Shown piece after piece: positions 1-48,808 of a stretch of DNA of 64,000 nucleotides. The position numbers and the translations under genes were made by a program. Within the stretch, counting starts at the first letter, position 1; each line of letters starts with the position of its first letter. This DNA comes from Candidatus Angelobacter sp. (GTDB lineage: Bacteria > Acidobacteriota > Terriglobia > Terriglobales > Acidobacteriaceae): positions 2,048 through 66,047 of the forward strand of contig DASXJO010000978.1 of NCBI GenBank assembly GCA_036497385.1, given 5' to 3'. A model generated the notes under the pieces. It made no database searches. It saw nothing but the letters and a program-made list of their open reading frames with translations, and was not told the origin of the DNA.

Positions 1-1474
1 CGTTTCTGTGCACAACATTGGGAATGCGGCTTCGCCACTCTTCTCGCACTGGCGCGACCAAAAGCATGTATGGGCTTTCCCGGTCGCATTCAAAGTATGT
101 ATGGAGGTCTTCCAGTAGAACGGATGGCGCGAATGGCCGGAAGTCCTCGCGGAACTTTACTTTTGTATTGATATACTGGTGCAGATGCGCGGGCTGCGGG
201 TCGGCGAGAATGCTTCGGTTGCCCAGCGCCCGCGGGCCGAATTCTGACCTGCCCTGGAACCATCCGACTGTGTTGCCCGCCTTCAGATGCGATACCGTCT
301 CCGCGATGCAATCTGTAGAATGCGAGAAGTCGATTGAGTGGGCATGCCGTGACAACACAGATTCGATTTCATTCGAATGATAGCGCTTACCCAAGTACGT
401 GGAGCCGTCATGACTGACTTTTTTCTGTTTTAATATCTTCAGCCAGCCATAATAGGCGCAGCCTATCGCCAGCCCGTTGTCCCCCGCGGCAGGCTGTATA
501 TATATATTTTCGAAGGGGCCTTCCTTGAGGATCCTGGCATTTGCCACGGCATTCAGCGCTACTCCGCCGGCATAGCAAAGGTTGCGAGATGGATATTGCT
601 GGTATCTTGCATTAACCAAATAGAGGATGGCCCTCTCTACTTCGCTTTGCACCCAATAAGCCAGGTCGGCATAATATTGAAAGTTATTGCGGAAATCTTC
701 ATCTGTTCGCGCTGGCTTGCGGAAGCCGCGGATCCAGTCGTAACGCAGGAACACGCGTCCTTCGCGCAAATCGAAAATCTCGAAGTCGTAGATCCCGGGA
801 CGTCCATAAGGGGCCAACCCCATGAGCTTCCCTGAATCATCCATGCCTCTGAATATGTAATTGCTGACCGCGGCATACAGGCCGCCGATAGTATGAAGGA
901 TTGACTTTGGATAGAGAGGATACTCCTTCAATATCATTCCCAGCTGGGCAAAATCCTTATAAATAGTTTTGATTTCACCATTCTCTACTTTGTAATAGCT
1001 TTCCTTCTCAAACCATATGGATGCCGTCTCTCCCGTGGGGCGTTCCGGTATGATCGCCTCTTCCAGATCAATGCATTCGTCAAGCCCGCTGCCGCAGCCA
1101 TCCACCACCCATATCGCCCCGTCTTCAAACGGGCTGGTGCCGAAAGCGCTGTAAGCATGCGCAAGATGATGCGAAATGGAGACTACCGGCATTTCATCGC
1201 TAAGCACCCGCCGGCCGTCAAACCATTCGCTTCCAAATTCGAACATTCCAAAATTGGCGTTTTGCACGATGAGCGTCAGATCGGACAAGCGAATGCCTTC
1301 GGCATCCAGGCAATACCGGATTGCGTCCGAATCGTTGTAACCGTCATGTTTTTTGCGGGTAATTCGTTCCTTTTCGATTGCAACACAGATGCGCCCATCT
1401 TTCAGCAGGCAGGCAGAACCATCGTGCGACAATCCGGTCCCTAGGACGTAGATAGGCTTCCTGTCGTTTGCCAT
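1..1474 (-). CDS. NodU/CmcH-family carbamoyltransferase, N-terminal ~491 codons only (C-terminus lies beyond window start)
   Basis: Not in the supplied ORF track because it is open at the window edge. My translation of the minus strand from ATG (1474..1472) is uninterrupted to position 1: MANDRKPIYVLGTGLSHDGSACLLKDGRICVAIEKERITRKKHDG...VVSISHHLAHAYSAFGTSPFEDGAIWVVDGCGS...GKLMGLAPYGRP...CYAGGVALNAVANARI...IQPAAGDNGLAIGCAYYGW...GWFQGRSEFGPRALGNRSILADP. These are the conserved blocks of NodU/CmcH/NovN-type carbamoyltransferases. Confidence 0.85.
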   Translation of the reverse strand, partial: MANDRKPIYVLGTGLSHDGSACLLKDGRICVAIEKERITRKKHDGYNDSDAIRYCLDAEGIRLSDLTLIVQNANFGMFEFGSEWFDGRRVLSDEMPVVSISHHLAHAYSAFGTSPFEDGAIWVVDGCGSGLDECIDLEEAIIPERPTGETASIWFEKESYYKVENGEIKTIYKDFAQLGMILKEYPLYPKSILHTIGGLYAAVSNYIFRGMDDSGKLMGLAPYGRPGIYDFEIFDLREGRVFLRYDWIRGFRKPARTDEDFRNNFQYYADLAYWVQSEVERAILYLVNARYQQYPSRNLCYAGGVALNAVANARILKEGPFENIYIQPAAGDNGLAIGCAYYGWLKILKQKKVSHDGSTYLGKRYHSNEIESVLSRHAHSIDFSHSTDCIAETVSHLKAGNTVGWFQGRSEFGPRALGNRSILADPQPAHLHQYINTKVKFREDFRPFAPSVLLEDLHTYFECDRESPYMLLVAPVREEWRSRIPNVVHRN

Positions 1475-4722: not shown

Positions 4723-4959
4723 TTATGAATGGCTTCCGCGAGCCGTTCTCTCCGTTTCCATGGCATCGACCAGGCTTTTAGGGCGCATGTCAGTCCAGTT
4801 TGTTTCAACCCACTCAAGGCATTCTTTCTTTTTGCCGCGTACACCTGCCGGCGTCCAGCCTGCTGGAACCTCTAAGAATGAGGACCATAATGAATATTGA
4901 AGTTCATGATTTATAAGAACCAGAAATTCTCCATTCTCATTGTCAAATGGGTTACTCAT
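4723..4959 (-). CDS. MbtH-like protein (78 aa)
   Basis: MSNPFDNENGEFLVLINHELQYSLWSSFLEVPAGWTPAG...CLEWVETNWTDMRPKSL carries the NPFD...QYSLWP-like...GW...WTDMRP signature of MbtH-family NRPS A-domain chaperones. Confidence 0.9.
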   Translation of the reverse strand: MSNPFDNENGEFLVLINHELQYSLWSSFLEVPAGWTPAGVRGKKKECLEWVETNWTDMRPKSLVDAMETERTARGSHS

Positions 4960-5170
4960 GAAAAGCCTCCTTTATTGTCTGCGTGGTAAAGCTTTGGTGG
5001 TCTGCTTTTTGGTCCTAGGCGCACCCAGGCAGGTAACGGAAAGTGCGAAACTACCCGATATTATATAGCTTAATTATTCTAACTTCATTAATAATCTACT
5101 CCCATTTGCAAATTGGACTATCAAAACTATTCCTGTGACCAGAAATTCGCCGTCTGAACTCCTGCACTGA

Positions 5171-6325: not shown

Positions 6326-6477
6326 GGAACAACCACTCCTCTCCCCCTCGGGTTCGGATGTAGGCCCGCAACAGGAATCAGATCAGCAAAAAGATCAACC
6401 TCTGGCCAGGAACGCGCTCCGCAGCGCGCATCATCGGATGATATTCCGCGCTGATGCCCGATGAATCGGCCGTATGC

Positions 6478-6795
6478 TCAAGCCGGAGACAGATGGCCTG
6501 TGCCGGCAAAAGTCGCTAGATCGATATCGGCAAAACATTTGACCTTTTCGTAGTCGAGTGTGAGAGTGCCGACAACATGAATCCGTCCCGTGCCGCGGTC
6601 AAAATCCGCATCCAGCTTGCAGGCGGTCTTGTCGAGCCGGATGCCGAGTTCCGTGCCACCGCGCGTCCCGGTAAACTTGACGTGAAGAAATCCGCGTGCA
6701 ATCCGGTCCCGCAAGCCGTTCAAAGTGATTACCGACCGCATGGTAATTTCAACGGGATGTTCGCCCAGAGAAAGCCTTGTTACAAGATCGCTCAT
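6478..6795 (-). CDS. Hypothetical 105-aa protein
   Basis: A clean ORF with no competing frame, located between the methyltransferase and the NRPS promoter region. No family recognised. Confidence 0.4.
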   Translation of the reverse strand: MSDLVTRLSLGEHPVEITMRSVITLNGLRDRIARGFLHVKFTGTRGGTELGIRLDKTACKLDADFDRGTGRIHVVGTLTLDYEKVKCFADIDLATFAGTGHLSPA

Positions 6796-22979: not shown

Positions 22980-23140
22980 ACTGCAGCGATCTTTTGACTC
23001 GATTGCATACCCAGGGAATACGCATACAACTTGTGGGCGAAAAGATCCGGTTGAGTATTCCCAGCGGGGAGCTGGATCCAGACGTGCGCGAAGAAATCAA
23101 GCTTCACCGGGAAGAAATCAAGTCTTTGCTGCGTCAGCCT
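22976..23140 (+). other. TubC-N-terminal-type docking domain
   Basis: MNCSDLLTRLHTQGIRIQLVGEKIRLSIPSGELDPDVREEIKLHREEIKSLL precedes the first C domain. It shows the pattern LL..L...G..L...G..L.....G.L......I...K.EI..LL typical of this docking fold. The partner, NRPS 2, ends in an acidic tail. Confidence 0.65.
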
Positions 23141-35800: not shown

Positions 35801-38800
35801 ATACTTCCAGAGTACATGATACCCGGACAATATGTATGGATGCAGCAGTTGCCTCTGCTGCCCAATGGCAAGCTGGACCGTAATCAACTGCCGAACCTGG
35901 CCACGTTGGGAAGATCCGGAAGAGAGTATGTTGCGCCGCGAAGCGAAGTGGAGAAATCGCTTTGCGGAATCTGGCAGGAAGTCTTGCGGCAGGAGAAGGT
36001 AGGAATAGAGGACAACTTCTTCGAGCTGGGCGGAGATTCCATACGCGCGATCACGGTTATTTATAAGTCCAGCCAGTTGGGGATCAACATCAAGCTGGTG
36101 GAGCTGTTTGAACAGCAAACAATCTCAGCACTCGCCGGCGGGCTGGCGCCGGCCCTCAGCACCGCTCATGAGCCTGACCCGATAGCGTCAGTTGCGCTGC
36201 TCTCCGCGAACGACAGAGCTTTGCTCCCCGAGGATGTGGAGGATGCATACCCTTTGAATTACATGCAAATGGGCATGGTCTATCACAATCAGTTGGGACA
36301 GAAATCGGGACTTTACCATGATGTGTTCAGCCACCACATTCGCATCAGCGAGTGGAATCCCGAAGTCTTCCGCGAGGTACTGGATGCTCTTGCCGCCAAG
36401 CACCCGGTGTTGCGCACTTCCTTGTCGCTCGATGCCTACAGCGAGCCCCTGCAAATGGTCCATCGGAAAACACATATTCCGGTGGAGTTCCACGATCTCA
36501 GCGGATTGTCATCCTCACTGCAGGAAGAAACGCTGCAACGGTGGAGGGAAGAGGAACAGAAAAGCTCGTTTGTCCTGAGCCATGCTCCTTTGCTCAGGAT
36601 CTTTATTCACCGGCGGAGCACTGAAAGCTTTCAATACACGCTGAGTTTTCATCACGCGATTCTGGATGGATGGAGCGTAGGCCTGTTTCAAATGGAGCTT
36701 TTCCGGGAGTACACCCGGAGGACCGGGGAGCAAGCGAAGAAGCACGATCTCGCACCATTGCGCTCCACATTCAAGCGGGCCATCGCCCGAGAAAAGCTCT
36801 CCCTGGCTTCCGAAGCAACGAAGTCATTCTGGTCAGCGTATCTGCAAGGATGGTCTACTCCGTTTCTGCCTGCGTTAAAACCCAAAAGTTCATCCGGTGA
36901 GGTCAGGAGGTTTGTCACCATTCTGCCTGCCGGCCTCAAGACCAGGCTTTTTCAAGTTGCCGCCGCATTGCATGTTCCGCTGCGGACTTTGTTTTTGGCC
37001 GCGCACCTTCGCATTATGGCTTTCTTTTCCGGTGAAAAGGATGCCATTACCGGGCTGGTATGCCATAGCCGCCTGGAAGAGTGGGATGGGGAAAATGTGC
37101 TGGGAATGTTCATCAACATCCTGCCATTCCGGCAAACCGTCCGCGTTTCGACATGGAGCGAACTGGTGCGCCAGACGTATGCGCGCGAGCTGGAAATCAT
37201 GCCGCATCGGCATTATCCCTATGCGGAGATATTCATCCAGAATGACCGCATTCCTTTGTTCGAAACAGGGTTTAACTATACCGATTTCCATGTTTACGCA
37301 GGTTTTCGTGATCTGAACTCGATAGAGTTCCTGGGCGGTTCTAACTTTGAAGCAACCGACCTGGCCGTGGAAGTAAATGTGATTATGCGCGGCGAGGACG
37401 GGGCGCTGAACCTGGCATATGATGCTATTCGTTTCTCATCCCAACAGATTGAGCAATTGGCCGGATACTATTCTGCTGTGTTGCAGTCCATGGCGGCGTC
37501 ACCTGATTCCGGCACAGGGCTGCAAGCGATCCTGTCTGAAGCGCAGTTCCGCCAGGTCTTATATGAATGGCATGGGCAGACAAAAGACATGCCTGCGGCG
37601 CTGGTTCCGGACTTATTCGAACAACAAGTTGAGAGAACGCCGGACGCAGTGGCGCTATCGTACGAAGACAGATATTTAAGCTATGGCGGGCTGAACGAAC
37701 AGGCAAATCAGTTCGCGCATTACCTGATCAGCGAGGGAAGAGGACCGGAAGACCTGATAGGAATTTATCTGCCGCGCTCACTGGAAATTGCGGTGGTCAT
37801 GCTGGGGATTCTGAAAGCGGGAGCGGCTTTTCTGCCTTTCGATCCGGAGTTCCCGCAGGGAAGAGTGGCTTCCATCCTGAAAGGTGCGAATCCGGCGCTC
37901 GTTGTCAGCACAAGGAAACTGCAAAGAAGCCTTCCGCGGCAGGTTTTATCCTTAGATATAGAAGAGCCTGGCTTTGCCAGCGCACTCCGGCGCATGCCGG
38001 CGGATAATCCGGTCAATCGAGAGCGAAAAACTCCATTATTGCCGCGGCATCTAGCCTACGTAATTTATACCTCCGGCTCCACAGGGGAACCCAAAGGAGC
38101 TGCCATTGAGCATGGCGGCATGCTGAATCACATGTTGGCCAAAATCGAGGACCTCGCCTTGAATGAGCGGGACATCATGGGCCACACCGCAACCATTGTC
38201 TTCGATGTAGCCATCTGGCAGTTGTGGGCAGCACTGCTGGCCGGCGGCCGCGTTCACATTATTAACGGAGAATCGACAGGCGACGTGCTGAATATCCTGC
38301 GGACTCTGCATGAACGTGAAGTGTCAGTGCTGGAAACAGTGCCATCTGTGCTTACGATCATGCTGGATGCAGCGGCGGATGAAGGATGGCCCAGCCTGCG
38401 CCATACCATTGCAAACGGTGAGCCGCTGACGAATGAAATGTACCAGCGCTGGCGCCGAATGTCCCGCGCCGGCCACCTCTGGAACATGTACGGAGTAACG
38501 GAGTGCTCGGATGATGCGACACATTACCGCGTGGAAGGCGAATCCAGGGAGGGAGATGTTATCGCAGTTGGCCAGGCGCTCCGCAATACTGAATTATATC
38601 TGCTGGATGACGCGCTGGAGCCGGTGCCCTCGGGCATGCCCGGCGAGTTATACATTGGCGGGGCGGGAGTCGGCCGTGGATACTTCAGACAACCGGGACA
38701 TACCGCGGACCGTTTTATCGGCAGTCCATTTGGAAAACCAGGATCACGGATATATCGAACCGGGGACCGGATGATATGCCGGCCCGATGGGGTGTTGAGA

Positions 38801-41800
38801 TTTTTGGGCCGGACGGACCACCAGGTGAAACTGCGGGGATTCCGCATTGAACTGGGGGAGATTGAAAGCGCCCTGCGGCAGCAGACCGAAGTCAGGGATG
38901 CGGTGGCCCTCATACGGGAAGAGAAAGATGGTGATAAACGAGTTGTAGCCTATGTCGTGCCTGCAACCGATTCCGCAATCGATCCCCAGCTTTTACGCCG
39001 TGCGCTCGGACGAGCCTTGCCTGAACATATGGTGCCGGCCGCTATCGTAGTTCTGGATGCATTTCCCCTGACCTTGAATGGAAAGCTGGACCGAAAGGCT
39101 TTACCGTCGCCGGAATACAGCAGCATGCTGCCATACAGGCCGGCCCGCACTGCTCAAGAGGAGGTCCTTTGTTCGCTTTTCGCTGAGGTGCTTGGGATCG
39201 AGCAGCCTGGGATCGATGACAATTTTTTCCAACTGGGCGGGCATTCGTTGTCGGCAATGCGGTTAGTAAGCCGCATTCGATCGACGCTTGCGCTGGAATT
39301 GTCGATCAAAACCTTCTTTGAAGCTCCCACTGTGGCTGGGTTGAGCGCGCGTTTACGGGATTCCGCAAAAGGCCGTGAACCGCTCATCCGCCAGCCGCGG
39401 CCGCAGGCGTTGCCTTTGTCACATGCCCAGGAGCGCCTCTGGTTCATCGATCAACTGGAGGCTGGCAGGAGCACACAGTATCACATACCGCTGGCGTTGC
39501 GATTGCGCGGGAAATTGGATACGGAAGCCCTGGAAAAAGCCTTCCACGCGATCCTGGAGAGACATGAGAGCCTGCGGACCCGTTTCATACAGGTGAATGG
39601 CGAGGCCCTACAGGTGATAGAGCCTTACCAGGCAATGCCGATTGAGCTGGAAGACCTGAGCGCGCTGGATGCGGAATCGCAGCGGCTGCGCGTATCGGAC
39701 GCCTTGAATCAAGAATGGGAGAAGGCATTCGACCTGGAACACGGGGCCGGGTGGCGGGTGAAACTGCTGAAGCTGAATGAGACGGAACATGTGCTGTTGA
39801 GGACCACGCATCATATCGTATCCGATGAGTGGTCGGAGAAGATATTCGATCAGGAGTTCGGGGTCCTATACGAGGCATTTCTGGAAAAGCGGCAAAATCC
39901 TTTGCCGCCCTTGCAGGTTCAATATGCGGACTTTGCGATTTGGCAGCGCAGATGGCTGCAACAGGGCGTGTTGCAAAAAGGGCTGAACTATTGGAGACAG
40001 CAGTTGGCCGGGATCCCCGAGCATTTGGAGCTGTCGAAGGACACGCCGCCCTCAGCATCGCCGAGCTTTGATGCCCAGATCCACGAGATCGAGGTCCCCG
40101 CTGGGCTCTTGCCGGGGCTGAAGCGCCTGACCGAACAAGGCAAGGCCACGCTCTACATGAGCTTGCTTGCGGCGTTGGGAGTGCTGCTGTCGCGCTATAG
40201 CAGCCAGCAGGAAGTTGTGGTGGGATCGCCGGTCGCAGACCGACAAGATCCGCAACTGGAAGAATTAATCGGCCTTTTTATAAACCTGTTGGCATTACGG
40301 ATGCGAGTACCGCGCCAGGCCAGCTTTCTTGAGCTTCTGGATGAGGTGAGAAAGATGACCCTGGAAGCCTACCAGCATCAGTATGTGCCGTTCGAGCAAG
40401 TTGTTGACGAGGTCTGCCCACGGCGCAGTTTAAGTCGAACGCCGCTGTTCCAGGTGGTTTTTTCGGTGCACACCGCCATGCGTGAAGGACGATCGCTCAA
40501 GGGCCTTGAGGTGGAGCGGATTCTAGGAGAAGGTGTGCGGACGCGGCACGACATCGAGGTGCATGCATGGGAAGGAAAAAACCGGCTCTGGGTGCATTGG
40601 CTCTATAAGCGCGATCTCTTTTCCGCCCGGCAAATGAACCAGATGGCACAGCACTACGTGCGAGTGCTGGAGGCGGTGGTGGCGGCCCCGGAACAAGCCC
40701 TGGAGGAAATCGATCTGCTTACCGCGGAAGAGCGGCGGATGATCCTGGAGGAATGGAACCGGACAGCAGCTGATTATCCCCAGATGTTCGTGCATCGACG
40801 AATCGAAGAGCAGGCAGCAAGAACGCCCGAGCGTGTCGCTGTGGACTATGAAGGCCAGCATCTCACGTACGGCGAATTGAATCGGCGCGCGAACCAGCTG
40901 GCGCGGCATTTGCTGAAAATCGGCGTGAAAGCTGAATCGCGGGTCGGAATCTGCCTGGAGCGAAGCATGGAAATGCTGGTGGCGCTGCTGGGAGTTATGA
41001 AAGCCGGCGCAGCTTATATACCGCTCGATCCGGAGAACCCAAAGGAACGTTTGCGATTCATGATAGAAGAATCGCAGATAACAGTGGTTCTTTTGCAGCA
41101 AAAGTTTGTCGCCAAGTGTCCGCCGCATCTGCCATGGCTGATCAAGTTGGATACCGGTTGGGAAGTTATCAGCCGGGAAGATGATGAAGATCAGGCCATC
41201 CTTGTTGAATCGGACAATGCGGCTTACGTGATCTACACATCGGGCTCCACGGGGCGCCCTAAAGGCGCCATGAATACCCATCGCGGTCTGGAAAACCGGC
41301 TTGTGTGGATGCAGGAGAAATACAGACTGGGCGGTGATGACAGGGTCCTGCAAAAAACTCCGTTCGGCTTTGATGTGTCCGTCTGGGAGTTCTTTTTGCC
41401 CTTAATAGCGGGAGCGGAGCTGGTAGTAGCTCGCCCGGAAGGACATCGTGATCCTTTTTATCTCGCAAACTTGATTCAGCAGAAGGAAGTAAGCACGCTG
41501 CATTTCGTGCCTTCGATGCTGGCCGCCTTCCTGGACGCAGGCAGAGAGCAGGGATGTGGCAGCGTACGGCGAATCTTCTGTAGTGGAGAAGCCCTGCAGC
41601 CGGAATTGGCGCGGCGCTGCAAGGAGCTGTTCAACGGCGAATTGCACAATCTATATGGGCCCACTGAGACCGCAATCGATGTGTCTTGGCATGAATGCAC
41701 ATTGCATCTGGAAGGCACAGTGCCGGTTGGTAGACCGATTGCCAACACACGGATGTACGTCCTGGATCAGGCCGGGCAGGCGGCTCCTGTGCTGGTCCCG

Positions 41801-42634
41801 GGTGAGTTGTACATAGGCGGCGTAGGGCTGGGACGGGGTTATGTAAACCGCCCGGAGCTGACGGCGGAGCGTTTTGTGCCTGATCACGTGAGTGGCCGGG
41901 CTGGCGAACGATTGTACCGTACGGGCGATGTAGCTCGATGGCGCGAGGACGGCGCCTTGGAATACCTTGGCCGCACGGACCATCAGGTAAAGATACGCGG
42001 TTATCGCATTGAATTGGGAGAGATCGAATCCGCACTGAGACGGCATCCCGCAGTGAACGATGCCTTAGTCACGGCAGGAGACTATCCAGGCTGCGAGAAA
42101 CGCCTGATAGCCTATGTGGTCGCTCATCCGGACAAAGCAGTTGCTGGCGGAACCGGCTCCCCGCAGTCGCGCGCTTCTGCACAACTCCAAACGGAATTGC
42201 CGCTCTACCTCGCACAAGGGCTTCCGGAGTACATGCTCCCTTCAGCTTTTGTATTTGTAGACAGTTTTCCGCTGCTGTCCAACGGAAAGCTTGATCGCCA
42301 AGCCTTGCCTGCTCCAGAGTTTTGGACGCGCAACGAATATGTGCCGCCCCAAACCCCGCAAGAAGCGGCGCTATGCGGTGCTTTTGCCGAGGTGCTGCGC
42401 GTCGAGCGGGTTGGCGTGGACGACAATTTTTTTGAATTGGGTGGAAACAGCATCAGCTCAATCCGGGCCGTAACCAAACTGCGGGATGCCGGGGTGATGA
42501 TCACTCTCCGCGATTTCTTTCATCTGCAAACAGCCAGGAACATGGCGGCGGTTGTGAACTGTGCCGGGCTTGATTCCCTCATAAAGTTGGCAAATCCGGA
42601 AGGGACGCTGATGCAAAGCACGAAAACAGCCTGA
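32891..42634 (+). CDS. NRPS 4 (3247 aa): C8-A8-T8-C9(DCL-like)-A9-T9-C10-A10-T10, no release domain
   Basis: Motifs read by domain:
- C8: IPLSYPQQRLWFIDQL, HHIVFDGWS (from 33425).
- A8: LAYVIYTSGSTGNPRG, WNMYGPTETTIW, NGKLDRNQLP.
- T8: FFELGGDSI (Ser 36038-36040).
- C9: VEDAYPLNYMQMGMVYH, HHAILDGWS (from 36650).
- A9: LAYVIYTSGSTGEPKG, WNMYGVTECSDD, NGKLDRKALP.
- T9: FFQLGGHSL (Ser 39245-39247).
- C10: LPLSHAQERLWFIDQL, HHIVSDEWS (39809-39832).
- A10: AAYVIYTSGSTGRPKG, HNLYGPTETAID, NGKLDRQALP.
- T10: FFELGGNSI (Ser 42449-42451), followed by a 60-aa tail and the stop. Confidence 0.97.
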   Translation: MDTLVSTRIAKLSDAKRLLLEKRLSGAAAAGDCPELVSLSPRPQFIPLSYPQQRLWFIDQLEHGGSTQYNLPAAFRLTGNLDVKILVQAIQAIVDRHEILRTRFVPIQGSPAQMIEPRLTMEIPLHDISSLDADSQKTFILTALERERQQPFDLEHGPLLRVKLLKLKEQEHILLRTTHHIVFDGWSDGIFNQELSALYQAFQDGRENPLLRLELQYADFAIWQRQAMEAGPLEEGLRYWKQKLAGIPTHLNLPTDRLRPARQTFRAKGFYLKVPETAAAELKKLTQESRTTLYMSLLAAFGVLLSRYSGEADVVVGSPIANRNDRRLEQMIGFFITVLAMRLQISGTMNFLELLRETRKTALEAYQHQDVPFERIVDEISPQRSLSRTPLFQVLFAMQNAPWEAQRISGLQTERITGEDLRVRYDMEVHAWEDEGEIWLRWLYNCDLFDSWRIEQMSRHFIHVLEAAAAAPQKALGEIDLLTAEERLEILEGWNQTSADYPRTFVHQLIAEQAARTPERVVADYEGQQLTYGELNRRANQLSRYLVRLGAGPETRVAICMERSLEMLVTLLAVLKSGAAYVPLDPSYPVKRLQYIFEDAEIGIFLTQASIEEHMPAGTGTRIIVDERSAEIDRESSENPDAVAFDHLAYVIYTSGSTGNPRGVQVSHHALTNFLLSMQREPGISELDVLLAVTTLSFDIAGLELYLPMIAGARVKILDRAAISDPRQLLDAMQEVTVMQATPGTWQLVLQAGWSGSQGIKALCGGEALNSELAGKLVRCSGSTWNMYGPTETTIWSSTSSVQAGEEKTSLGRPIANTKFFVLDEWMKPVPRGVCGELYIGGEGLARGYWKRGDLTAERFVPDPFSVKGGERLYRSGDLARYSGEGRLEYLGRCDQQVKVRGYRVELKEIEAALQGHENVKQAAVLVQTDDNGAQLLVAYVAKIGPQEEAPAAETAPEIDAGELRKYLQGILPEYMIPGQYVWMQQLPLLPNGKLDRNQLPNLATLGRSGREYVAPRSEVEKSLCGIWQEVLRQEKVGIEDNFFELGGDSIRAITVIYKSSQLGINIKLVELFEQQTISALAGGLAPALSTAHEPDPIASVALLSANDRALLPEDVEDAYPLNYMQMGMVYHNQLGQKSGLYHDVFSHHIRISEWNPEVFREVLDALAAKHPVLRTSLSLDAYSEPLQMVHRKTHIPVEFHDLSGLSSSLQEETLQRWREEEQKSSFVLSHAPLLRIFIHRRSTESFQYTLSFHHAILDGWSVGLFQMELFREYTRRTGEQAKKHDLAPLRSTFKRAIAREKLSLASEATKSFWSAYLQGWSTPFLPALKPKSSSGEVRRFVTILPAGLKTRLFQVAAALHVPLRTLFLAAHLRIMAFFSGEKDAITGLVCHSRLEEWDGENVLGMFINILPFRQTVRVSTWSELVRQTYARELEIMPHRHYPYAEIFIQNDRIPLFETGFNYTDFHVYAGFRDLNSIEFLGGSNFEATDLAVEVNVIMRGEDGALNLAYDAIRFSSQQIEQLAGYYSAVLQSMAASPDSGTGLQAILSEAQFRQVLYEWHGQTKDMPAALVPDLFEQQVERTPDAVALSYEDRYLSYGGLNEQANQFAHYLISEGRGPEDLIGIYLPRSLEIAVVMLGILKAGAAFLPFDPEFPQGRVASILKGANPALVVSTRKLQRSLPRQVLSLDIEEPGFASALRRMPADNPVNRERKTPLLPRHLAYVIYTSGSTGEPKGAAIEHGGMLNHMLAKIEDLALNERDIMGHTATIVFDVAIWQLWAALLAGGRVHIINGESTGDVLNILRTLHEREVSVLETVPSVLTIMLDAAADEGWPSLRHTIANGEPLTNEMYQRWRRMSRAGHLWNMYGVTECSDDATHYRVEGESREGDVIAVGQALRNTELYLLDDALEPVPSGMPGELYIGGAGVGRGYFRQPGHTADRFIGSPFGKPGSRIYRTGDRMICRPDGVLRFLGRTDHQVKLRGFRIELGEIESALRQQTEVRDAVALIREEKDGDKRVVAYVVPATDSAIDPQLLRRALGRALPEHMVPAAIVVLDAFPLTLNGKLDRKALPSPEYSSMLPYRPARTAQEEVLCSLFAEVLGIEQPGIDDNFFQLGGHSLSAMRLVSRIRSTLALELSIKTFFEAPTVAGLSARLRDSAKGREPLIRQPRPQALPLSHAQERLWFIDQLEAGRSTQYHIPLALRLRGKLDTEALEKAFHAILERHESLRTRFIQVNGEALQVIEPYQAMPIELEDLSALDAESQRLRVSDALNQEWEKAFDLEHGAGWRVKLLKLNETEHVLLRTTHHIVSDEWSEKIFDQEFGVLYEAFLEKRQNPLPPLQVQYADFAIWQRRWLQQGVLQKGLNYWRQQLAGIPEHLELSKDTPPSASPSFDAQIHEIEVPAGLLPGLKRLTEQGKATLYMSLLAALGVLLSRYSSQQEVVVGSPVADRQDPQLEELIGLFINLLALRMRVPRQASFLELLDEVRKMTLEAYQHQYVPFEQVVDEVCPRRSLSRTPLFQVVFSVHTAMREGRSLKGLEVERILGEGVRTRHDIEVHAWEGKNRLWVHWLYKRDLFSARQMNQMAQHYVRVLEAVVAAPEQALEEIDLLTAEERRMILEEWNRTAADYPQMFVHRRIEEQAARTPERVAVDYEGQHLTYGELNRRANQLARHLLKIGVKAESRVGICLERSMEMLVALLGVMKAGAAYIPLDPENPKERLRFMIEESQITVVLLQQKFVAKCPPHLPWLIKLDTGWEVISREDDEDQAILVESDNAAYVIYTSGSTGRPKGAMNTHRGLENRLVWMQEKYRLGGDDRVLQKTPFGFDVSVWEFFLPLIAGAELVVARPEGHRDPFYLANLIQQKEVSTLHFVPSMLAAFLDAGREQGCGSVRRIFCSGEALQPELARRCKELFNGELHNLYGPTETAIDVSWHECTLHLEGTVPVGRPIANTRMYVLDQAGQAAPVLVPGELYIGGVGLGRGYVNRPELTAERFVPDHVSGRAGERLYRTGDVARWREDGALEYLGRTDHQVKIRGYRIELGEIESALRRHPAVNDALVTAGDYPGCEKRLIAYVVAHPDKAVAGGTGSPQSRASAQLQTELPLYLAQGLPEYMLPSAFVFVDSFPLLSNGKLDRQALPAPEFWTRNEYVPPQTPQEAALCGAFAEVLRVERVGVDDNFFELGGNSISSIRAVTKLRDAGVMITLRDFFHLQTARNMAAVVNCAGLDSLIKLANPEGTLMQSTKTA
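42359..42634 (+). other. Terminal carrier protein T10 plus short tail (end of the assembly line)
   Basis: EAALCGAFAEVLRVERVGVDDNFFELGGNSISSIRAVTKLRDAGVMITLRDFFHLQTARNMAAVVNCAGLDSLIKLANPEGTLMQSTKTA-stop. No GxSxG thioesterase, no Rossmann reductase and no further HHxxxD domain follows. Confidence 0.85.
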
Positions 42635-42685: not shown

Positions 42686-43627
42686 GTGAGTTCGAGAATA
42701 ATGGCAAGACTAGATCGTTGTAGCGCATCCGATTTCGCCGATTCCGGCTTCCAGTCCGTGGGCCTGGGGACAAGCATCGCCCATCACGGCGAGCTGTTTC
42801 AAGGCCAAATAAGGGGTGAAGACGGGCAGTTGCGATATTGCCTGCTGTCACTGCCCTGTAGCCAGCTTGGCTCCAAGGCAACTTTTGTCCCGGACACCAC
42901 CGGTATATGCCGCGTCCACCCGGACTATAAAGAGAAGGTCAAGAGAGTCGTGCAACTTACGCTCTCACATTTTCAGTACGACCATCTGGGCGGGCTCATC
43001 AAGGTAGAAAGCAATATCGCCGAGGGAAAAGGCTATGGAAGTTCGACCGCGGATTGCGTCGCGGGCGCAATTGCAGCCGCGGCGGCGATCGACCACGAGT
43101 TGTCTGAAGCCACTCTGGCTAAATTGGTGGTACGGGCTGAAATCGCAAGTGACAGCATTATGTTCAAGCATGCTGTTCTTTTCGCGCACAGAGAAGGCAG
43201 CCTGATTGAAGATTACCTGCGCCCAGCCCCGAAAATCGAAGTACTTGGATTCGACACCAATGTGGCTGTCCGGGTCGATACGCTCCAGTATGACCCTGCT
43301 GTCTATGGGACGCATCACATACAAGCATTTCACCGGCTTAGAGAAATGCTGGCGGAAGCTATCCGCACCCAGGACGTTCGGCTTTTGGCGCATGTTGCCA
43401 CGGCCAGCGCCGCAATCAATGAGCAATTCCTGCCCAAGCCGATGTTTCAGGAAGTCTGCACCCTCGTCAAGTGCGTTGGAGGCCTAGGGGTTGCGGCTGC
43501 ACATTCCGGGACCATTTTAAGCATTTTATTCGACCCGCAAGATCCTGCTCTCGAAAAACGAATCGACATTCTTCACCGGGAATTGAGCAGCCTGGGTCTT
43601 TCACAGCTGATGCGTTTTCATACTTAA
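42686..43627 (+). CDS. GHMP-family kinase, PduX (L-threonine kinase)-like
   Basis: Blocks that parallel my recollection of Salmonella PduX: SIAHHGELFQGQI (PduX has CGELIQGW), VESNIAEGKGYGSSTADCVAGAIAAAAAI (the GHMP phosphate-binding motif), ASAAINEQFLPKPMF, and LGVAAAHSGTILSILFD. The alternative start is ATG 42701. Confidence 0.8.
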   Translation: MSSRIMARLDRCSASDFADSGFQSVGLGTSIAHHGELFQGQIRGEDGQLRYCLLSLPCSQLGSKATFVPDTTGICRVHPDYKEKVKRVVQLTLSHFQYDHLGGLIKVESNIAEGKGYGSSTADCVAGAIAAAAAIDHELSEATLAKLVVRAEIASDSIMFKHAVLFAHREGSLIEDYLRPAPKIEVLGFDTNVAVRVDTLQYDPAVYGTHHIQAFHRLREMLAEAIRTQDVRLLAHVATASAAINEQFLPKPMFQEVCTLVKCVGGLGVAAAHSGTILSILFDPQDPALEKRIDILHRELSSLGLSQLMRFHT

Positions 43628-43641
43628 GGAGCGGTAATCAC

Positions 43642-44697
43642 GTGAGTGCTACAAAAGCGATATCGCCGGTGAGCTTCGATATTTACCGCCCAGCCTTTGT
43701 CGCGCTGGCGGATAACCTCATTGCGGCCGTATTTCCACTCATGAAAATCTATCCGGCCGAGTACTGTCTTCGGACCGCAATCAAGCAGGGGCTGATCGAT
43801 GATGGCACAGTCATTGTCGAAACATCGTCCGGCAATCTTGCGCTGGGCCTGGCGATTGTCTGCAACTCGATGGGCCAGAAACTCACTATCGTAACCGACT
43901 ACGCTTGCGATCCGCATTTATGCCGTCGATTGACCGATTTAGGAACGAACCTGGAGATTGTGCCCGCGCCTGCCGCTACCGGCGGCTATCAAAGAGCGCG
44001 CCTGGATCGCCTTGAGGAGATCCGGCAGGTGCAGCGCAATCACTGGTGGCTGAACCAGTATGACAATCTGGGAAACTCAGAGGCATATCGGTCGTTTGCA
44101 CAGCAGATTCTGGAAACGGTGGGCCCCATTGATTGCCTGGTAGGGACCGTAGGCTCCGGAGGTTCGGTCTGCGGGACCGCCAAGGCGCTGCGAGAGACCC
44201 TGCCGATGTTACATGTGATCGGGGTAGATACATTCGGGAGCGTGCTCTTCGGCCAACCGGAAAGGCCAAGAGTGCTGCGGGGGCTGGGCAACAGCATCAT
44301 GCCCAAGAACCTCGACCATACCGTATTCGATGAAGTCCACTGGGTTACCGCAGCAGAGGCCTATAAAGCTTCGCGGGTGCTCCACCAAAGAACGGCGCTT
44401 TTTCGCGGTGGAACCAGCGGTGCTTCCTGGCTAGTGGCCCAGCATTGGGCCAGAATGAATCCCGAGGCGCGCGTGCTGTGCATCTTCCCCGATGACGGCT
44501 ACAGATACGCAGACACCATTTACAACGATTCATATCTGGCGGCCTCCGGATTAATTTTGCCTTCCTTGCCAAGCTGCCCTAAACAGGTCGATCAGCCCTC
44601 CGACTCAGGTCCGGAATGGTCGTGGATGAAGTGGATGCGCCGCAGCTTGGTTACCGTGATGCAAATGAACCATGAACAAGCGTCGAGGCTGAGATGA
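43642..44697 (+). CDS. Fold-type-II PLP-dependent enzyme (cysteine synthase / SbnA / cystathionine-beta-synthase family)
   Basis: The track ORF starts at 43471 inside the kinase gene. I place the start at GTG 43642, 10 nt after AAGGAG (43626-43631). Motifs: LMKIYPAEY (PLP-lysine position of the S-x-K-D-R block), VETSSGNLALGLA, GTVGSGGSVCG (the phosphate-binding Gly loop), and GGTSGASW. Confidence 0.8.
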   Translation: MSATKAISPVSFDIYRPAFVALADNLIAAVFPLMKIYPAEYCLRTAIKQGLIDDGTVIVETSSGNLALGLAIVCNSMGQKLTIVTDYACDPHLCRRLTDLGTNLEIVPAPAATGGYQRARLDRLEEIRQVQRNHWWLNQYDNLGNSEAYRSFAQQILETVGPIDCLVGTVGSGGSVCGTAKALRETLPMLHVIGVDTFGSVLFGQPERPRVLRGLGNSIMPKNLDHTVFDEVHWVTAAEAYKASRVLHQRTALFRGGTSGASWLVAQHWARMNPEARVLCIFPDDGYRYADTIYNDSYLAASGLILPSLPSCPKQVDQPSDSGPEWSWMKWMRRSLVTVMQMNHEQASRLR

Positions 44698-45911
44698 AAG
44701 AGTCCGTGATTTTAATTGAGAGTAATACGACCGGCACCGGGCGCTTGTTTGCCCAATGCGTACGCTCTCTCGGATATCGTCCTGTTCTGCTGGCGGAAGT
44801 TCCTTCGCGATACACATATATAAAGGATGACGACATCGATTGCCTGCAAGTCAGAACCTCAGAGCCGTGGGAGCTGCGGGAAGCGGTCAGCCGGTTGGCG
44901 CAGGAGACGCCGATTGCGGGCATTTACTCCAGCTCTGAATATTTCATAGAAGAGGCGGCAACGCTTGCTTCCAGCTATGGTCTGCCTGGCGCCGACCCGT
45001 TGGTTGTGAAGGAGTGCCGCAATAAATATCATCAGCGGCTTCGCCTCAAAGAGGCGGGAATTCCGGTCCCCCGGTTCTGGTTCGCCAGTTCTCATTCAGA
45101 CCTTGCAGAGCTGCTCCAATCCGTTCCGCTGCCCGTAGTGGTGAAGCCTGTTGCTGGAAGCGGCAGCGTCGGCGTGAGGCTATGCCGGACCTACGCTGAA
45201 GTTCTCCAGCACTGCAGCGATCTGCTCAACAGGACTGTCAATGAGAGAGGATTGCCACAACCCTCGGATGTCCTGATTGAGGAGTACCTGGAAGGACAGG
45301 AATATTCTGTCGAAATTTTTGGCAACGCGATCATGGGCATTACTCTGAAGCATGTTTCGCGCGGGCCTTCTTTTGTGGAGATCGGCCACGATTTTCCTGC
45401 CCGCCTGGCCCCCGATGTGAATGAACAAATCGCGCAAACCGCGCTCCGCGCGAGCAAAGCCATGGGGCTGAACTGGGGGCCGATCCATATCGAGATCAAA
45501 ATGACCTCTCGGGGGCCTGCGATTGTTGAGATCAATCCCCGCCTTGCCGGGGGGTTCATACCCGAACTGGTGCGGCTTGCGTATGGGATCGATCTGATTC
45601 GCGAATCCGTGCGCAATATCGTTCAGCACGCCATCGATATCAAACCTACCAGCAACCGGAGCGCATCTATCCGCTTCCTGGTGCCCCGGACCAGCGGCAG
45701 GGTCAGGTGTATTGAAGGTGTGGAGGAAGCCAGAAGCGTTCCGGGCGTAGTGGAAGTGAGGACATACGTTCAGCCTGGAAGCGATGTGCAGCTGCGCGGA
45801 GACTTCCGTGACCGCATTGCCCATGTTATTGCATCCGGCGTTGCCGAGGGAGCGGCGGAGCATTCATCGCAAACGGCTTGCAACAGGATCAACATTGAAG
45901 TGAGTTCGTAA
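44694..45911 (+). CDS. ATP-grasp ligase (405 aa)
   Basis: Shares an ATGA overlap with the upstream gene. Motifs: CRNKYHQRLRLKEAGIPVP, PVVVKPVAGSGSVGVRL, LIEEYLEGQEYSVEIF, and GPIHIEIKMTSRGPAIVEINPRLAGG. Together these form the ATP-grasp fold signature. Confidence 0.8.
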   Translation: MKESVILIESNTTGTGRLFAQCVRSLGYRPVLLAEVPSRYTYIKDDDIDCLQVRTSEPWELREAVSRLAQETPIAGIYSSSEYFIEEAATLASSYGLPGADPLVVKECRNKYHQRLRLKEAGIPVPRFWFASSHSDLAELLQSVPLPVVVKPVAGSGSVGVRLCRTYAEVLQHCSDLLNRTVNERGLPQPSDVLIEEYLEGQEYSVEIFGNAIMGITLKHVSRGPSFVEIGHDFPARLAPDVNEQIAQTALRASKAMGLNWGPIHIEIKMTSRGPAIVEINPRLAGGFIPELVRLAYGIDLIRESVRNIVQHAIDIKPTSNRSASIRFLVPRTSGRVRCIEGVEEARSVPGVVEVRTYVQPGSDVQLRGDFRDRIAHVIASGVAEGAAEHSSQTACNRINIEVSS

Positions 45912-45922
45912 AAGAGAAGAAG

Positions 45923-47392
45923 ATGGAAAATACGGGAAGAATCCGGAAGCTTCTGAGTCCCACCGCCCGCAAGATCCTTTTCGGGCGGTCCACCAGTTCG
46001 ATGATTGATGACGAGTTGCCGTTCATTTGCAGCGCCGATTGTGCTCACCTGGTGATGCTTGCCGAATGCGGCATATGCGACCCGCAGTCGACTGCGCGAT
46101 TGCTGCGGGCCATTCAGCGTCTGATGGAAGCAGACTTTGATGTGCTGCGAGGCCGCGATCCTGTGCGCGGCATGTTCCTCTTATATGAGGACTACCTCAT
46201 TGAAACGGAGGGAGCTGAAGTTGGCGGAATCTTGCAAACCGCGCGATCAAGAAACGATTTAAACGCCACAGTGACAAAGATGCGGCTGCGGAAGCCTTAT
46301 ATCCGGCTACTTTCCGAAATCCTGAAATTTGAGGCAATTTTGTTAAGGCGGGTGGAAGCCTATCTTGATGTCGTGATGCCGGCCTACACACATGGCCAGC
46401 CGGCCGCGCCGTCAACCCTGGGGCACTATCTGGCTGGTTTTACGCAAGCCCTCATGCGCGACTTCGATGGCCTTTTGGATGCGGGCAGGAACATCAGCCA
46501 GTCTCCTTTGGGCTCCTGTGCAATCGCGGGCACGTCATTTCCCATTGATACGCGGCGAACTGCCCAATTACTCGGGTTTGATGAAGGACCAGTGAATTCC
46601 GTGGATGCTATCGCTTCTCGCGATCTGGTCCTGCGGATTCTTGCAGCAGCTTCCATTTGCGGCATCACTTTAAGCCGGCTGGCGACCGACCTTCTTGAAT
46701 GGAGCACCGCCGAGTTTGGATTCCTGGATTTGCCGGATGAGTTGGTCGGCTCAAGTTCGGCGATGCCCCAGAAACGGAATCCCTTTCTGCTGGAGCATGT
46801 AAAAGGACGAACCGCCTCTATTCTGGGAGCTTTTGTTGCCTCGGCCTCCGCTATGCGAGGAACGCCCTTCACGAATTCTATTGCTGTTGGGACCGAGGCG
46901 ATAAAGCCGGTTTGGGCGGCCTTGGACGAACTGACGGACAGCGTTGTATTGTTGCGCATTTTTGTAGCCGGACTGCGCCCTAAGCGCGAAGCGATGATGC
47001 AGTGCGCAAAGGCGGGATTTACCGTCGCCACCGAACTGGCGAACAAATTGGTGGCCAGAGCAGGCATGGATTTTCGCAGTGCGCATAGAGCGGTCGGGCA
47101 AGCCATAACCGCCGTGGGCAACAAAGAATCGGGTTCGGTTGAAGCGATTGCCGCCGAAGTGTCGAGTTCAAGGGGCATATCCATTCTGGCTGAAGAGCTT
47201 GAGCCGGCTTTTGTGGCCCAAGCGAGCGTCTCCGGTGGCGGACCTGCACGGTCCTCAGTGGAGACATGCCTTCAGATGCTCAAGCAACGCTGGCTTGAGC
47301 AGAAGGCCCAGAGCCGGTCTTACAAAAGAACGTGGCTGAATGCGGAAGCCCAACTGGAAGATGCCGTCCAGACGCTACGCCAGTGTTCGTAG
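45923..47392 (+). CDS. Argininosuccinate lyase / fumarate-lyase superfamily C-N lyase (489 aa)
   Basis: Motifs: TARSRNDLNATV, HGQPAAPSTLGHYL, and the superfamily signature GSSAMPQKRNPFLLEHVKG. Confidence 0.85.
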   Translation: MENTGRIRKLLSPTARKILFGRSTSSMIDDELPFICSADCAHLVMLAECGICDPQSTARLLRAIQRLMEADFDVLRGRDPVRGMFLLYEDYLIETEGAEVGGILQTARSRNDLNATVTKMRLRKPYIRLLSEILKFEAILLRRVEAYLDVVMPAYTHGQPAAPSTLGHYLAGFTQALMRDFDGLLDAGRNISQSPLGSCAIAGTSFPIDTRRTAQLLGFDEGPVNSVDAIASRDLVLRILAAASICGITLSRLATDLLEWSTAEFGFLDLPDELVGSSSAMPQKRNPFLLEHVKGRTASILGAFVASASAMRGTPFTNSIAVGTEAIKPVWAALDELTDSVVLLRIFVAGLRPKREAMMQCAKAGFTVATELANKLVARAGMDFRSAHRAVGQAITAVGNKESGSVEAIAAEVSSSRGISILAEELEPAFVAQASVSGGGPARSSVETCLQMLKQRWLEQKAQSRSYKRTWLNAEAQLEDAVQTLRQCS

Positions 47393-47482
47393 ATTGAAAT
47401 AGAACGGGCACTGGCCGCTGTAGTAGAGGGTTTCTGCCCGTCGCGCTTTTCGAAGTAAAAATTTAATTGGAGGAACTAAGAC

Positions 47483-48226
47483 ATGACTGAATCTCTCGAG
47501 AAATTATTGGCAAAGATCACCAACCATTCCGCGCTGGAAAACAAATTCTATGATGAGTGGATGTCCAGAAAATTTTCTGTCAATGAACTGGCGATTGTTC
47601 ACAAAAATTATGGTGAATGGGTCAGGTCCTTTCCCGATGCGCTGGCAATTCTTCTGGCCGGCACGCAAGATGTGGAAGCAAAAACGGAATATGCAAAAAC
47701 GCTTTACTCGGAAATGGGATATGGAAATTCCAGCAAGGTGCATTCCGTGCTTCTTAATAACTTTTTCAAAGAGCTGGTCGAGAGAATGGACCCTGCGCAG
47801 GCGGCGGATTGGGAGCGGCTGCATCAAGAAATTTATCTGGCGCCGAGCACCCAAGAATTGGTTCGCGGCGAGCAGGACCTTTATCGCGATCCGGAAATGT
47901 CCTTTGGCGCTCAGCTTGCGCTGGAGTGGCAGGCATATACGATGCTGAGGAAACTGTACGATGGGGCCAGAAATTACATTGAATTTTGGCCGAACCCGGA
48001 TGACTTCCATGAAGCGTGTGAATATTTCTATGCTCATATTGGCGCCACGGAAAAAGAACACAAGCAAGAGTCTCTCAAGGCGGTGAGGCGATACGCTGTC
48101 AACCAGAAAGCCCTGGATAAGATCGTCGAAGGATATGAACTTCACCTGGGCCTGATCGCCCGTTTCTGGCGAGGACTATATGCTGAAATAACCCAACCGA
48201 GTGCGATATCAATGGCAATAGCTTGA
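47483..48226 (+). CDS. Heme-oxygenase-like fold protein (TenA/PqqC/CADD-type, possible di-iron oxidase), 247 aa
   Basis: All-helical protein. NHSALENKFYDEWMSRKFSVNELAIVHKNYGEWVRSFP resembles the N-terminus of PqqC/TenA/CADD-like proteins. Candidate metal ligands sit in E-x-x-H-like spacings (YSEMGYGNSSKVHSVL; LEWQAYTM; FYAHIGATEKEHKQE). Confidence 0.55.
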   Translation: MTESLEKLLAKITNHSALENKFYDEWMSRKFSVNELAIVHKNYGEWVRSFPDALAILLAGTQDVEAKTEYAKTLYSEMGYGNSSKVHSVLLNNFFKELVERMDPAQAADWERLHQEIYLAPSTQELVRGEQDLYRDPEMSFGAQLALEWQAYTMLRKLYDGARNYIEFWPNPDDFHEACEYFYAHIGATEKEHKQESLKAVRRYAVNQKALDKIVEGYELHLGLIARFWRGLYAEITQPSAISMAIA

Positions 48227-48808
48227 GCCAGGCTTTTGATGTTGACTCCATGTGACCGAATCAGCGACGTCCCTGGTCGCCCCTCTGTTCTTGCGGTTGA
48301 AACGGCCATCGAGGAGCAGAAAAAGCTGTTCGTAGGCGATCAAGAATTTGCAACCTGCTGTTTTGGGGGCAACAGCTTGGGCTGCCGGAGCACCGCGGCA
48401 GAGATGAAGGTCCTCTGTTTTTCTCTATGCCGGCGGGTAAGAAAGGGAGACCTTCGCTGCGAGAGGCAATATAAGTTTGACAAAAATACCGGAGTTCATC
48501 GCGGATACTCCCAGACGTGAGCCGCCAAGCCACGAAGGGGAGTACGCGATGGTAGCCTGCCAGGCCTCCAGGCTCCGGTGCAGATTGTGATCGGCATTTG
48601 TGATTGGCGGCGCTCAGATCGTGTATTACGCACGCGATTGCCGTCGCTGTTATCGCTGTATCGCTCGCCCATCCTCGTCCCCATCGACGAAGCTGTGCTC
48701 GATTAGGCGTCGAAGTAGAATTTTGATTTTCTTATACTTCCAGAGTACCTGCCTAGCCTCATCGAGCAAAAAATGCTGAATGCGGGAACGGCTGTAACTG
48801 CTTGAAAA

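Follow-up and report, generated by a model that had tools for sequence, protein, structure and literature searches.

What does a cassette of four tightly packed genes supply to the peptide synthetase beside it, and to which of its modules? We addressed this question for a 64,000-nucleotide stretch of DNA from Candidatus Angelobacter sp. (Acidobacteriota; assembly GCA_036497385.1, contig DASXJO010000978.1, positions 2,048 to 66,047 of the forward strand), referred to throughout, at its full length, as the window. In the window, four nonribosomal peptide synthetase (NRPS) genes are followed by genes for a GHMP kinase, a pyridoxal phosphate (PLP) enzyme, an ATP-grasp ligase, and a lyase resembling argininosuccinate lyase (ASL). 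On comparison with characterized systems, these four genes very probably represent a split-gene DabABC operon that would provide the ten-module NRPS immediately upstream of it with 2,3-diaminobutyrate (2,3-Dab). The genes, and the catalytic loop of the lyase, are located as follows.

42701..43627, + strand: GHMP kinase, DabA-like, a predicted L-threonine kinase (Pfam GHMP_kinases_N, E = 2e-11)
43642..44697, + strand: SbnA/CysK-like fold-type-II PLP beta-replacement enzyme, DabB-like (Pfam PALP, E = 7e-35)
44694..45911, + strand: ATP-grasp ligase similar to the N-terminal half of DabC, DabC-N (ATP-grasp_4, E = 2e-24; LAL_C2, E = 5e-19)
45923..47392, + strand: ASL-like C-N lyase similar to the C-terminal half of DabC, DabC-C (Lyase_1, E = 1e-38; ASL_C2, E = 3e-8)
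46748..46783, + strand: catalytic loop of the lyase, amino acids 276-287, with the fumarate-lyase signature GSSSAMPQKRNP

Gene Organization and the Published Pathway

All four genes are co-directional and lie directly 3' of NRPS gene 4, which has its stop at 42634. The kinase and PLP genes are separated by 14 nt, where the kinase stop codon TAA is followed by AAGGAG and then by the GTG at 43642. The PLP and ATP-grasp genes share an ATGA overlap, and the gap between the ATP-grasp and lyase genes is 11 nt. This spacing is operon-like. A sequence-only reading had described four tightly packed genes after NRPS 4, and the strand, the spacing, and the expected Pfam domains bore that description out. 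The longest open reading frame (ORF) of the PLP gene begins at 43471, but the start is better placed at GTG 43642, which has a ribosome-binding site and yields the 351-aa protein also called by JGI. The sequence-only reading had given the lyase signature as GSSAMPQKRNP, dropping one Ser from the loop listed above. The kinase gene has a second possible start, a GTG at 42686, and the JGI gene call for it is 308 aa. The NRPS genes, the cassette, and the gene downstream of it were all shared with a sister contig in GCA_037025165.1, in which the kinase was 93% identical.

The dabABC operon of Burkholderia thailandensis E264 makes (2S,3R)-2,3-diaminobutyrate (Li et al., iScience 2024; PMC10906522). 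DabA is a PduX/BluE-like L-threonine kinase required in vivo, and DabB is a CysK/SbnA-like PLP enzyme that converts O-phospho-Thr and L-Asp to N-(1-amino-1-carboxy-2-propyl)-aspartate (ACPAA) and does not use L-Glu (PMC10906522). DabC, an N-terminal ATP-grasp domain fused to a C-terminal ASL-like domain, converts ACPAA to (2S,3R)-Dab and fumarate (PMC10906522). By the published description, the window matches this operon in its GHMP kinase, CysK/SbnA-like PLP enzyme, ATP-grasp, and ASL-like lyase, which stand in identical order; in having no threonine aldolase; and in a partner NRPS with an adenylation (A) domain bearing a DVWE..DD pocket. It differs in that the ATP-grasp and the lyase are two genes, whereas they form the single protein DabC in E264, and in that the E264 product is a monobactam while a ten-residue peptide from an uncultured bacterium is expected here.

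Related sets of genes are known from the clusters for friulimicin, pacidamycin, napsamycin, and mureidomycin, in which the halves of DabC are either separate proteins or have the N-terminal half joined to the PLP enzyme (PMC10906522). The tie to friulimicin and pacidamycin, which the sequence-only reading had drawn, was confirmed by this source. The actinomycete operons (friulimicin dabA/B/C, pacidamycin pacQST, napsamycin, and mureidomycin) have the same gene families beside NRPS genes, and homologs from Streptomyces and Actinoplanes were 37-42% (kinase), 44-49% (PLP enzyme), 41-45% (ATP-grasp), and 44-53% (lyase) identical to the window proteins. Many of these operons join the PLP enzyme to the ATP-grasp, unlike the window, and the operons of the uridyl-peptide type carry an extra GntG/threonine aldolase that the window lacks.

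By homology and synteny with B. thailandensis DabABC, for which the chemistry of the first three steps has been shown, the window pathway would proceed as follows. The GHMP kinase would phosphorylate free L-threonine to O-phospho-L-threonine. The PLP enzyme would then eliminate the phosphate and add the alpha-amine of L-aspartate at C3, giving ACPAA, which the ASL-like lyase would cleave to fumarate, carrying the carbon skeleton of aspartate, and 2,3-Dab with a free beta-amine. Finally, A9, the A domain of module 9, would load 2,3-Dab as position 9 of the peptide; L-Dap (L-2,3-diaminopropionate) made from O-phosphoserine could in part be a side product. The loading by A9 and the stereochemistry of the product are both inferences. 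L-Asp rather than L-Glu is the likely amine donor of the PLP enzyme, since a fumarate-releasing lyase stands where an SbnB-type dehydrogenase would be. The predicted isomer is (2S,3R), because no threonine aldolase gene accompanies the cassette: none was found among the window ORFs of at least 200 aa scanned against Pfam, and none of the window ORFs that were unscanned or had no Pfam match was near the 357-375 aa of the aldolases observed in this analysis. The operon type that contains an aldolase has been tied to (2S,3S)-Dab (PMC10906522).

The sequence-only reading had proposed O-phosphorylation of Thr, replacement of the phosphate with the amine of Asp by the PLP enzyme, and expulsion of fumarate to leave 2,3-Dab. 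This is the published DabABC pathway, and the domain content, gene order, and family signatures of the window fit it. The proposal is right, but the pathway had already been demonstrated in 2024; the locus is a new, all-split copy of it. The catalytic residues of the PLP enzyme, the ATP-grasp, and the lyase were all invariant across the homologs compared.

Identity of the Lyase

The lyase aligned with positions 410-884 of NF002563, an 890-position fused ATP-grasp/lyase family, at 442 bits, and the ATP-grasp aligned with positions 2-396 of the same model at 380 bits. Against the argH model TIGR00838 the lyase scored 304.5 bits, which is above the cut-off of 279.5 and below its NF002563 score. 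The lyase aligned along its full length, over residues 27-487, with EDDS lyase (PDB 6g3d; E = 2e-52). In alignments to the ASLs 2e9f and 1tj7 (Thermus thermophilus and E. coli), the segment AYNKD[LM]QEDKE, which we take to be part of the argininosuccinate site, was replaced in the window lyase by FTNSIAVGTEAIK. Residues N318, I320, V322, and E325 in this region were invariant within the cassette family. The catalytic loop and the general-base residues were intact, with the pattern G-[STG]-S-S-[AMI]-M-P-Q-K-[RK]-N kept in 28 cassette lyases, and the SRND motif, the YTH157 histidine, and the catalytic loop conserved in 28 homologs.

The higher NF002563 score, the replaced ASL segment, and the full-length alignment with EDDS lyase argue against a true ArgH. 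The NCBI pipeline (PGAP) nevertheless calls cassette lyases 'argH, argininosuccinate lyase' with an arginine-biosynthesis Gene Ontology term (loci L083, L084, and others). This naming arises because the family exceeds the TIGR00838 cut-off, and it is a systematic mis-annotation. The PGAP names and the TIGR00838 score would favor an ordinary arginine-biosynthesis ArgH surrounded by unrelated housekeeping genes. That explanation is improbable in the extreme, however, given that synteny with the kinase, PLP, and ATP-grasp genes is kept in biosynthetic clusters across phyla, that NF002563 beats the argH model, and that the substrate-region motif is unlike that of true ArgH.

EDDS lyase is likewise of the ASL family and reversibly cleaves N-alkyl-aspartates to an amine and fumarate. 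AMA synthase, a CysK-like PLP enzyme, joins the amine of Asp to an activated serine. Both differ from the window enzymes in having other physiological substrates and in standing outside any kinase/ATP-grasp operon.

A second proposal of the sequence-only reading assigned ArgG- and ArgH-like roles to the ATP-grasp and the lyase, which with a carbamoyltransferase would convert an amine through a ureido intermediate to a guanidine. The lyase score above the TIGR00838 cut-off and the presence of a carbamoyltransferase gene within the window (minus strand, 1474..2, cut by the left end of the window) are consistent with such a route. The proposal fell on several counts, and we regard the route as highly improbable. 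The ligase belongs with the ATP-grasp enzymes of L-amino-acid-ligase type and not with those of the argininosuccinate-synthetase (ArgG) type, the carbamoyltransferase gene is 41 kb off on the opposite strand, none of 91 related loci had a carbamoyltransferase nearby, the lyase is without the ASL segment AYNKD[LM]QEDKE, and the kinase and PLP enzyme would be left without a role. Speculatively, the carbamoyltransferase could act on the peptide as a tailoring enzyme, with an amine as one conceivable target for carbamoylation.

The PLP Enzyme and the Kinase

The best PDB match of the PLP enzyme was SbnA (5d87, E = 2e-43), and this match together with the PALP domain upheld its earlier assignment to the cysteine-synthase/SbnA family. 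K35, the glycine loop G171-S175, and S259 were invariant in 77 homologs, which indicates an intact active site. The SbnA/SbnB pathway to L-Dap (also SulH/SulG and CmnB/CmnK) resembles the proposed one in using PLP-dependent beta-replacement on an O-phospho amino acid with an amino acid as the amine donor. It differs in starting from O-phosphoserine and L-Glu, in relying on NAD-dependent oxidative cleavage by SbnB, and in needing no kinase, ATP-grasp, or lyase. The window enzyme was considered as the SbnA of such a pathway and rejected: it scored 236 bits against the SbnA model TIGR03945, under the cut-off of 350, and a search of the window ORFs against Pfam found no SbnB-type NAD-dependent dehydrogenase beside the cassette.

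The GHMP phosphate-binding motif of the kinase, GKGYGSSTADC, was invariant in 16 homologs. Dozens of homologs carry the JGI label COG4542/PduX-type, 'protein involved in propanediol utilization', which together with the GHMP_kinases_N domain agrees with the earlier description of a PduX-like GHMP kinase. From these COG labels and the statements in PMC10906522, the enzyme is predicted to be an L-Thr kinase. Its nearest named relatives, at 48-56% identity, were from metagenome-assembled genomes (MAGs) of Candidatus Angelobacter, Terriglobia, Solibacter, and Pyrinomonadaceae (Acidobacteriota). A scan of the genome collection with the single kinase sequence gave no match; a scan based on a kinase alignment retrieved 80 genome loci, on which the window proteins were run by tblastn. 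The kinase was the first gene in the full-cassette loci, except in the rearranged locus L078.

The NRPS and Adenylation Domain A9

The NRPS upstream of the cassette comprises ten modules of condensation (C), A, and carrier (T) domains in four genes, with a single epimerase-like (E) domain.

7365-16385: NRPS gene 1, C(starter)-A1-T-C-A2(embedded methyltransferase)-T-E
16464-22979: NRPS gene 2, C-A3-T-C-A4-T
22976-32830: NRPS gene 3, C-A5-T-C-A6-T-C-A7-T
32891-42634: NRPS gene 4, C-A8-T-C-A9-T-C-A10-T
37568..39160, + strand: A9 in NRPS gene 4, the likely acceptor of the cassette product, specificity code DVWEINMDDK

Specificity codes of the ten A domains were read by alignment to GrsA, and the anchor motifs were checked in the output. 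Codes with a recognizable substrate, other than that of A9, were the following.

A3: DVQFIGHAVK, Pro-like
A5: DAKDLGHVNK, Glu-like
A6: DGTKMGHVGK, Asp-like
A8: DILQLGMIWK, Gly
A10: DVWHFSLIDK, Ser

The A9 code DVWEINMDDK was identical to that of SulM A3, DVWEMNADDK, at eight of ten positions and differed at positions 5 and 7. The matching positions include Glu4, Asn6, Asp8, and Asp9, and all beta-amine contacts are kept. A residue-level alignment to PDB 9n1u confirmed the register of the A9 code. SulM A3, with the code D-V-W-E-M-N-A-D-D, binds L-Dap and (2S,3R)-Dab (PMC12042044). In its structure, Asp8 and Asp9 form salt bridges and Asn6 a hydrogen bond to the beta-amine of L-Dap, and the pocket also takes methyl-Dap, which is 2,3-Dab (PMC12042044). 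Whereas the pocket code is shared between A9 and SulM A3 (PDB 9N1U/9N1V, 'mode 3' binding), the overall similarity of the two domains is moderate (E = 3.5e-75), and many other A domains score higher.

The sequence-only reading had expected the product to feed acidic-pocket A domains, naming A9 and A1. This probably holds for A9. A1 also has an acidic pocket, with the code DPEDIGVIDK, and a comparison of its pocket region with the PDB matched no diamino-acid A domain. Two related clusters bearing the cassette had the codes DVWTINMDDK and DVWERTLDDK at the same penultimate module, and three acidobacterial NRPS clusters without the cassette had no DD-type code in those of their A domains that were visible. 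Around the 80 related genome loci, no DD-type A domain was within reach in the flanking sequence, so the link between the cassette and A9 rests on three related contigs.

A rival reading is that the cassette mainly supplies Dap from the primary metabolite O-phosphoserine, in which case A9 would be a Dap module. DabB and DabC give L-Dap from O-phosphoserine and Asp without the kinase, and L-Dap is a minor product when the kinase is present (PMC10906522). L-Dap is also kinetically preferred by both SulM A3 and the A3 domain of E264. A dedicated kinase gene, however, heads the operon and is conserved with it, and the published survey found an L-Thr kinase in all of the Dab producers but in none of the Dap producers (PMC10906522). 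We consider Dap as the main product very unlikely.

Among characterized clusters, the Asp8/Asp9 'mode 3' pocket was stated to be unknown outside sulfazecin (PMC12042044). The pocket is also present in a solved PvdL A domain and in A9 of the window.

The NRPS ends with a carrier domain and has no thioesterase in cis; no thioesterase gene was seen in the window. That the NRPS starts with a condensation domain suggests N-acylation of the peptide. In module 2, a methyltransferase is embedded in A2, and an epimerase-like domain follows.

Distribution and Architectures of the Cassette

The order kinase-PLP-ATP-grasp-lyase recurred in 27 of the 80 loci; their sources are Acidobacteriota, Heliomicrobium, Rhodothermales, Azospirillum, Actinoplanes, Catenulispora, and Streptomyces. 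All three published architectures were represented among the loci: all genes split, ATP-grasp and lyase fused, and PLP enzyme and ATP-grasp fused. Two acidobacterial loci have the ATP-grasp-lyase fusion, as does the Mesorhizobium japonicum plasmid pMLa, where it is a 905-aa 'lyase family protein'. The pMLa gene stands 3' of a kinase and a PLP gene and is colinear with the window ATP-grasp and lyase, and the window lyase is ~35% identical to this fused type. The PLP-ATP-grasp fusion was found in Streptomyces. A Streptomyces plasmid carried the order NRPS-kinase-PLP-ATP-grasp-'argH'-GntG aldolase-MFS, which is the aldolase type tied to (2S,3S)-Dab.

In loci L083 and L013, an aldolase directly follows the cassette. 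In L013 (Acidobacteriaceae MAG palsa_309, 1395-5737), the kinase, PLP, and ATP-grasp genes are followed by a Beta_elim_lyase (threonine-aldolase-like) gene that replaces the ASL-like lyase, and the genes lie directly 3' of an NRPS end with carrier and thioesterase domains (T-TE). A full Dab-type cassette in a non-NRPS setting was observed on the Sulfuriferula nivalis plasmid SGTM_pl1 (L084, 2650-13735). There, a different, 365-aa iron-containing redox enzyme is encoded 5' of the cassette, and genes for a sugar-phosphate isomerase, an MFS transporter, PhzF, a second ATP-grasp, and a succinylglutamate desuccinylase-like protein lie 3' of it, with an acyl-homoserine-lactone synthase gene adjoining. 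This locus may encode a small Dab-derived metabolite under quorum-sensing control.

Loci with the kinase and PLP genes only (e.g., L003, L005, L021, L022, L034, and L049) came from Mesorhizobium, Cupriavidus, Paraburkholderia, Nocardiopsis, and some Acidobacteriota. Among their neighbors were a transketolase-like gene, another PALP enzyme, a fusion of PLP and GNAT domains, or a TauD dioxygenase with an NRPS. This suggests that beta-replacement on O-phospho-Thr is a broader module serving other beta-substituted aminobutyrates.

Role of the ATP-Grasp Ligase

The ATP-grasp is the component for which the published pathway has no step. DabC-N was left without an assigned role, and the fusions were named as a limitation (PMC10906522). 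The best PDB matches of the window protein were the L-amino acid ligases 3vot, 4wd3, and BacD. Within 32 cassette ATP-grasps, K151, the loop 155-160, E196/E203, H265/E267, E279-x-N281, and R283 were invariant, as were the additional charged residues R115, H232, R327, D370, R374, and H377. The protein is fused to the PLP enzyme in some loci and to the lyase in others. Gene content was also compared among the 70 loci whose sequence runs on for at least 5 kb past the kinase. The kinase and PLP genes alone were present in 38 and all four genes in 26, while three had kinase, PLP, and ATP-grasp genes without the lyase and three had the kinase only. The lyase without the ATP-grasp was found in none (0/70). 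Such nesting suggests that the lyase needs the ATP-grasp for its step, be it for catalysis or for scaffolding. Taken with the invariant catalytic residues, the kinship with L-amino acid ligases, and the fusions to either neighbor, the constant company of the lyase suggests that the ATP-grasp domain is functionally needed.

A tentative possibility is thus that DabC-N carries out an obligatory ATP-dependent step coupled to the lyase reaction, which would leave the three-step 2,3-Dab scheme incomplete. Put as an alternative to the simple supply of free 2,3-Dab, the module would still be of the Dab type, with the ATP-grasp acting on ACPAA or Dab, for example by ligating or activating a carboxylate. 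Either the published scheme would lack a step, or the cassette would deliver a derivative or dipeptide in place of free 2,3-Dab. The invariant catalytic and charged residues, the gene counts (0/70 for lyase without ATP-grasp, 3/70 for the reverse), the two kinds of fusion, the unassigned role of DabC-N, and the ligase kinship, to which a weak match to DdaF (which ligates N-beta-acyl-Dap) can be added, all speak for such a step. Against it, DabB alone forms ACPAA in vitro, cells with whole DabC that were fed ACPAA made the Dab-containing product, and ACPAA slowly decays unaided to Dab and fumarate (PMC10906522). In addition, the E264 A domain activates free (2S,3R)-Dab, the net chemistry has no ATP-requiring step after the kinase, and the domain could be a scaffold or an ATP-sensing regulator. 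On balance, we regard a real ATP-dependent step as doubtful, and the split-gene version in the window, with its separate ATP-grasp and lyase proteins, would be a convenient system for this question.

Weighing the 2,3-Diaminobutyrate Assignment

Several observations weigh against a 2,3-Dab supply operon. The kinase matched no L-Thr-kinase model in NCBIfam, its best matches being weak ones to mevalonate and homoserine kinases. The pair of kinase and PLP genes stood without an ATP-grasp or lyase in 45 loci, and the pair alone is consequently not diagnostic of Dab synthesis. The catalytic residues of the ATP-grasp are fully conserved, yet the published scheme holds no step for it, so the real product could be a Dab derivative and not free Dab. 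A9, moreover, could load 2,4-Dab, as its DD pocket resembles that of a PvdL domain. In a PDB search with the A9 pocket region, the best match was this PvdL A domain, DIWE-L-T-A-DD (9lco/9up2), which over that stretch is roughly on a par with SulM A3. The only diamino substrate of PvdL is L-2,4-Dab, from which we infer that the solved DD domain is the 2,4-Dab module; a full-text search returned no paper with the PvdL code DIWELTADDK. Because the PvdL domain shares it, the DD pocket alone does not separate 2,3- from 2,4-diamino acids. Asn6 and the adjacent cassette favor 2,3-Dab as the probable substrate of A9.

Genes and Features Downstream of the Cassette

One further gene, which the sequence-only reading did not mention, follows the cassette.

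47483..48226, + strand: heme-oxygenase-like iron enzyme (HDO), 247 aa (Haem_oxygenas_2, E = 5.5e-14)

The HDO gene is co-directional and lies 90 nt 3' of the lyase gene, with a GGAGGA site to itself. It was absent from the first 82 loci screened, including the other cassette loci, and had no homology to the iron enzyme beside the Sulfuriferula cassette. More than 300 homologs were found at 60-70% identity, and those named by source were from Acidobacteriota. In all three contexts inspected (L087, L088/L089, and L090/L091, at ~6001-6750), the gene immediately followed the last NRPS gene, and a Dab cassette was absent. HDO was therefore rejected as a core part of the cassette, being absent from other cassette loci and recurring after NRPS genes that lack one, and it seems to be an accessory that recurs in acidobacterial NRPS clusters. 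Its next neighbor in those three contexts is a small tRNA_bind protein, after which comes a halogenase-like flavoenzyme or an aminotransferase. In the window, HDO is followed by orf93 (48239-48520), which is unrelated to that tRNA_bind protein.

The 90-nt spacer between the lyase and HDO genes contains an inverted repeat, ACGGGCA...TGCCCGT, at 47413-47441, followed by CGCGCTTTTCG. It may be a weak terminator or attenuator; a consensus scan did not flag it because its loop exceeds 8 nt. Past the cassette and the iron-enzyme gene, from ~48600 onward, the G+C content drops from about 55-57% to about 48-50%, and the genes beyond ~48.6 kb (ThiF-like, TPR, and an ATP-dependent DNA ligase domain) look unrelated. 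From these changes, the cluster probably ends on its right side at about 48.6 kb.

Significance

The locus is predicted to encode an uncharacterised, probably N-acylated ten-module peptide carrying (2S,3R)-2,3-diaminobutyrate at position 9, produced by an uncultured soil bacterium. The prediction for position 9 would be useful to structure prediction, synthesis from sequence, and heterologous expression. Beyond the pathway published in 2024, the locus contributes the assignment of A9, an example of a SulM-type pocket outside the monobactam clusters, and a comparative case for the ATP-grasp being functionally required. On this assignment, the DabABC-type pathway and the 'mode 3' Dap/Dab pocket of SulM A3 would reach past the monobactam producers into the Acidobacteriota.

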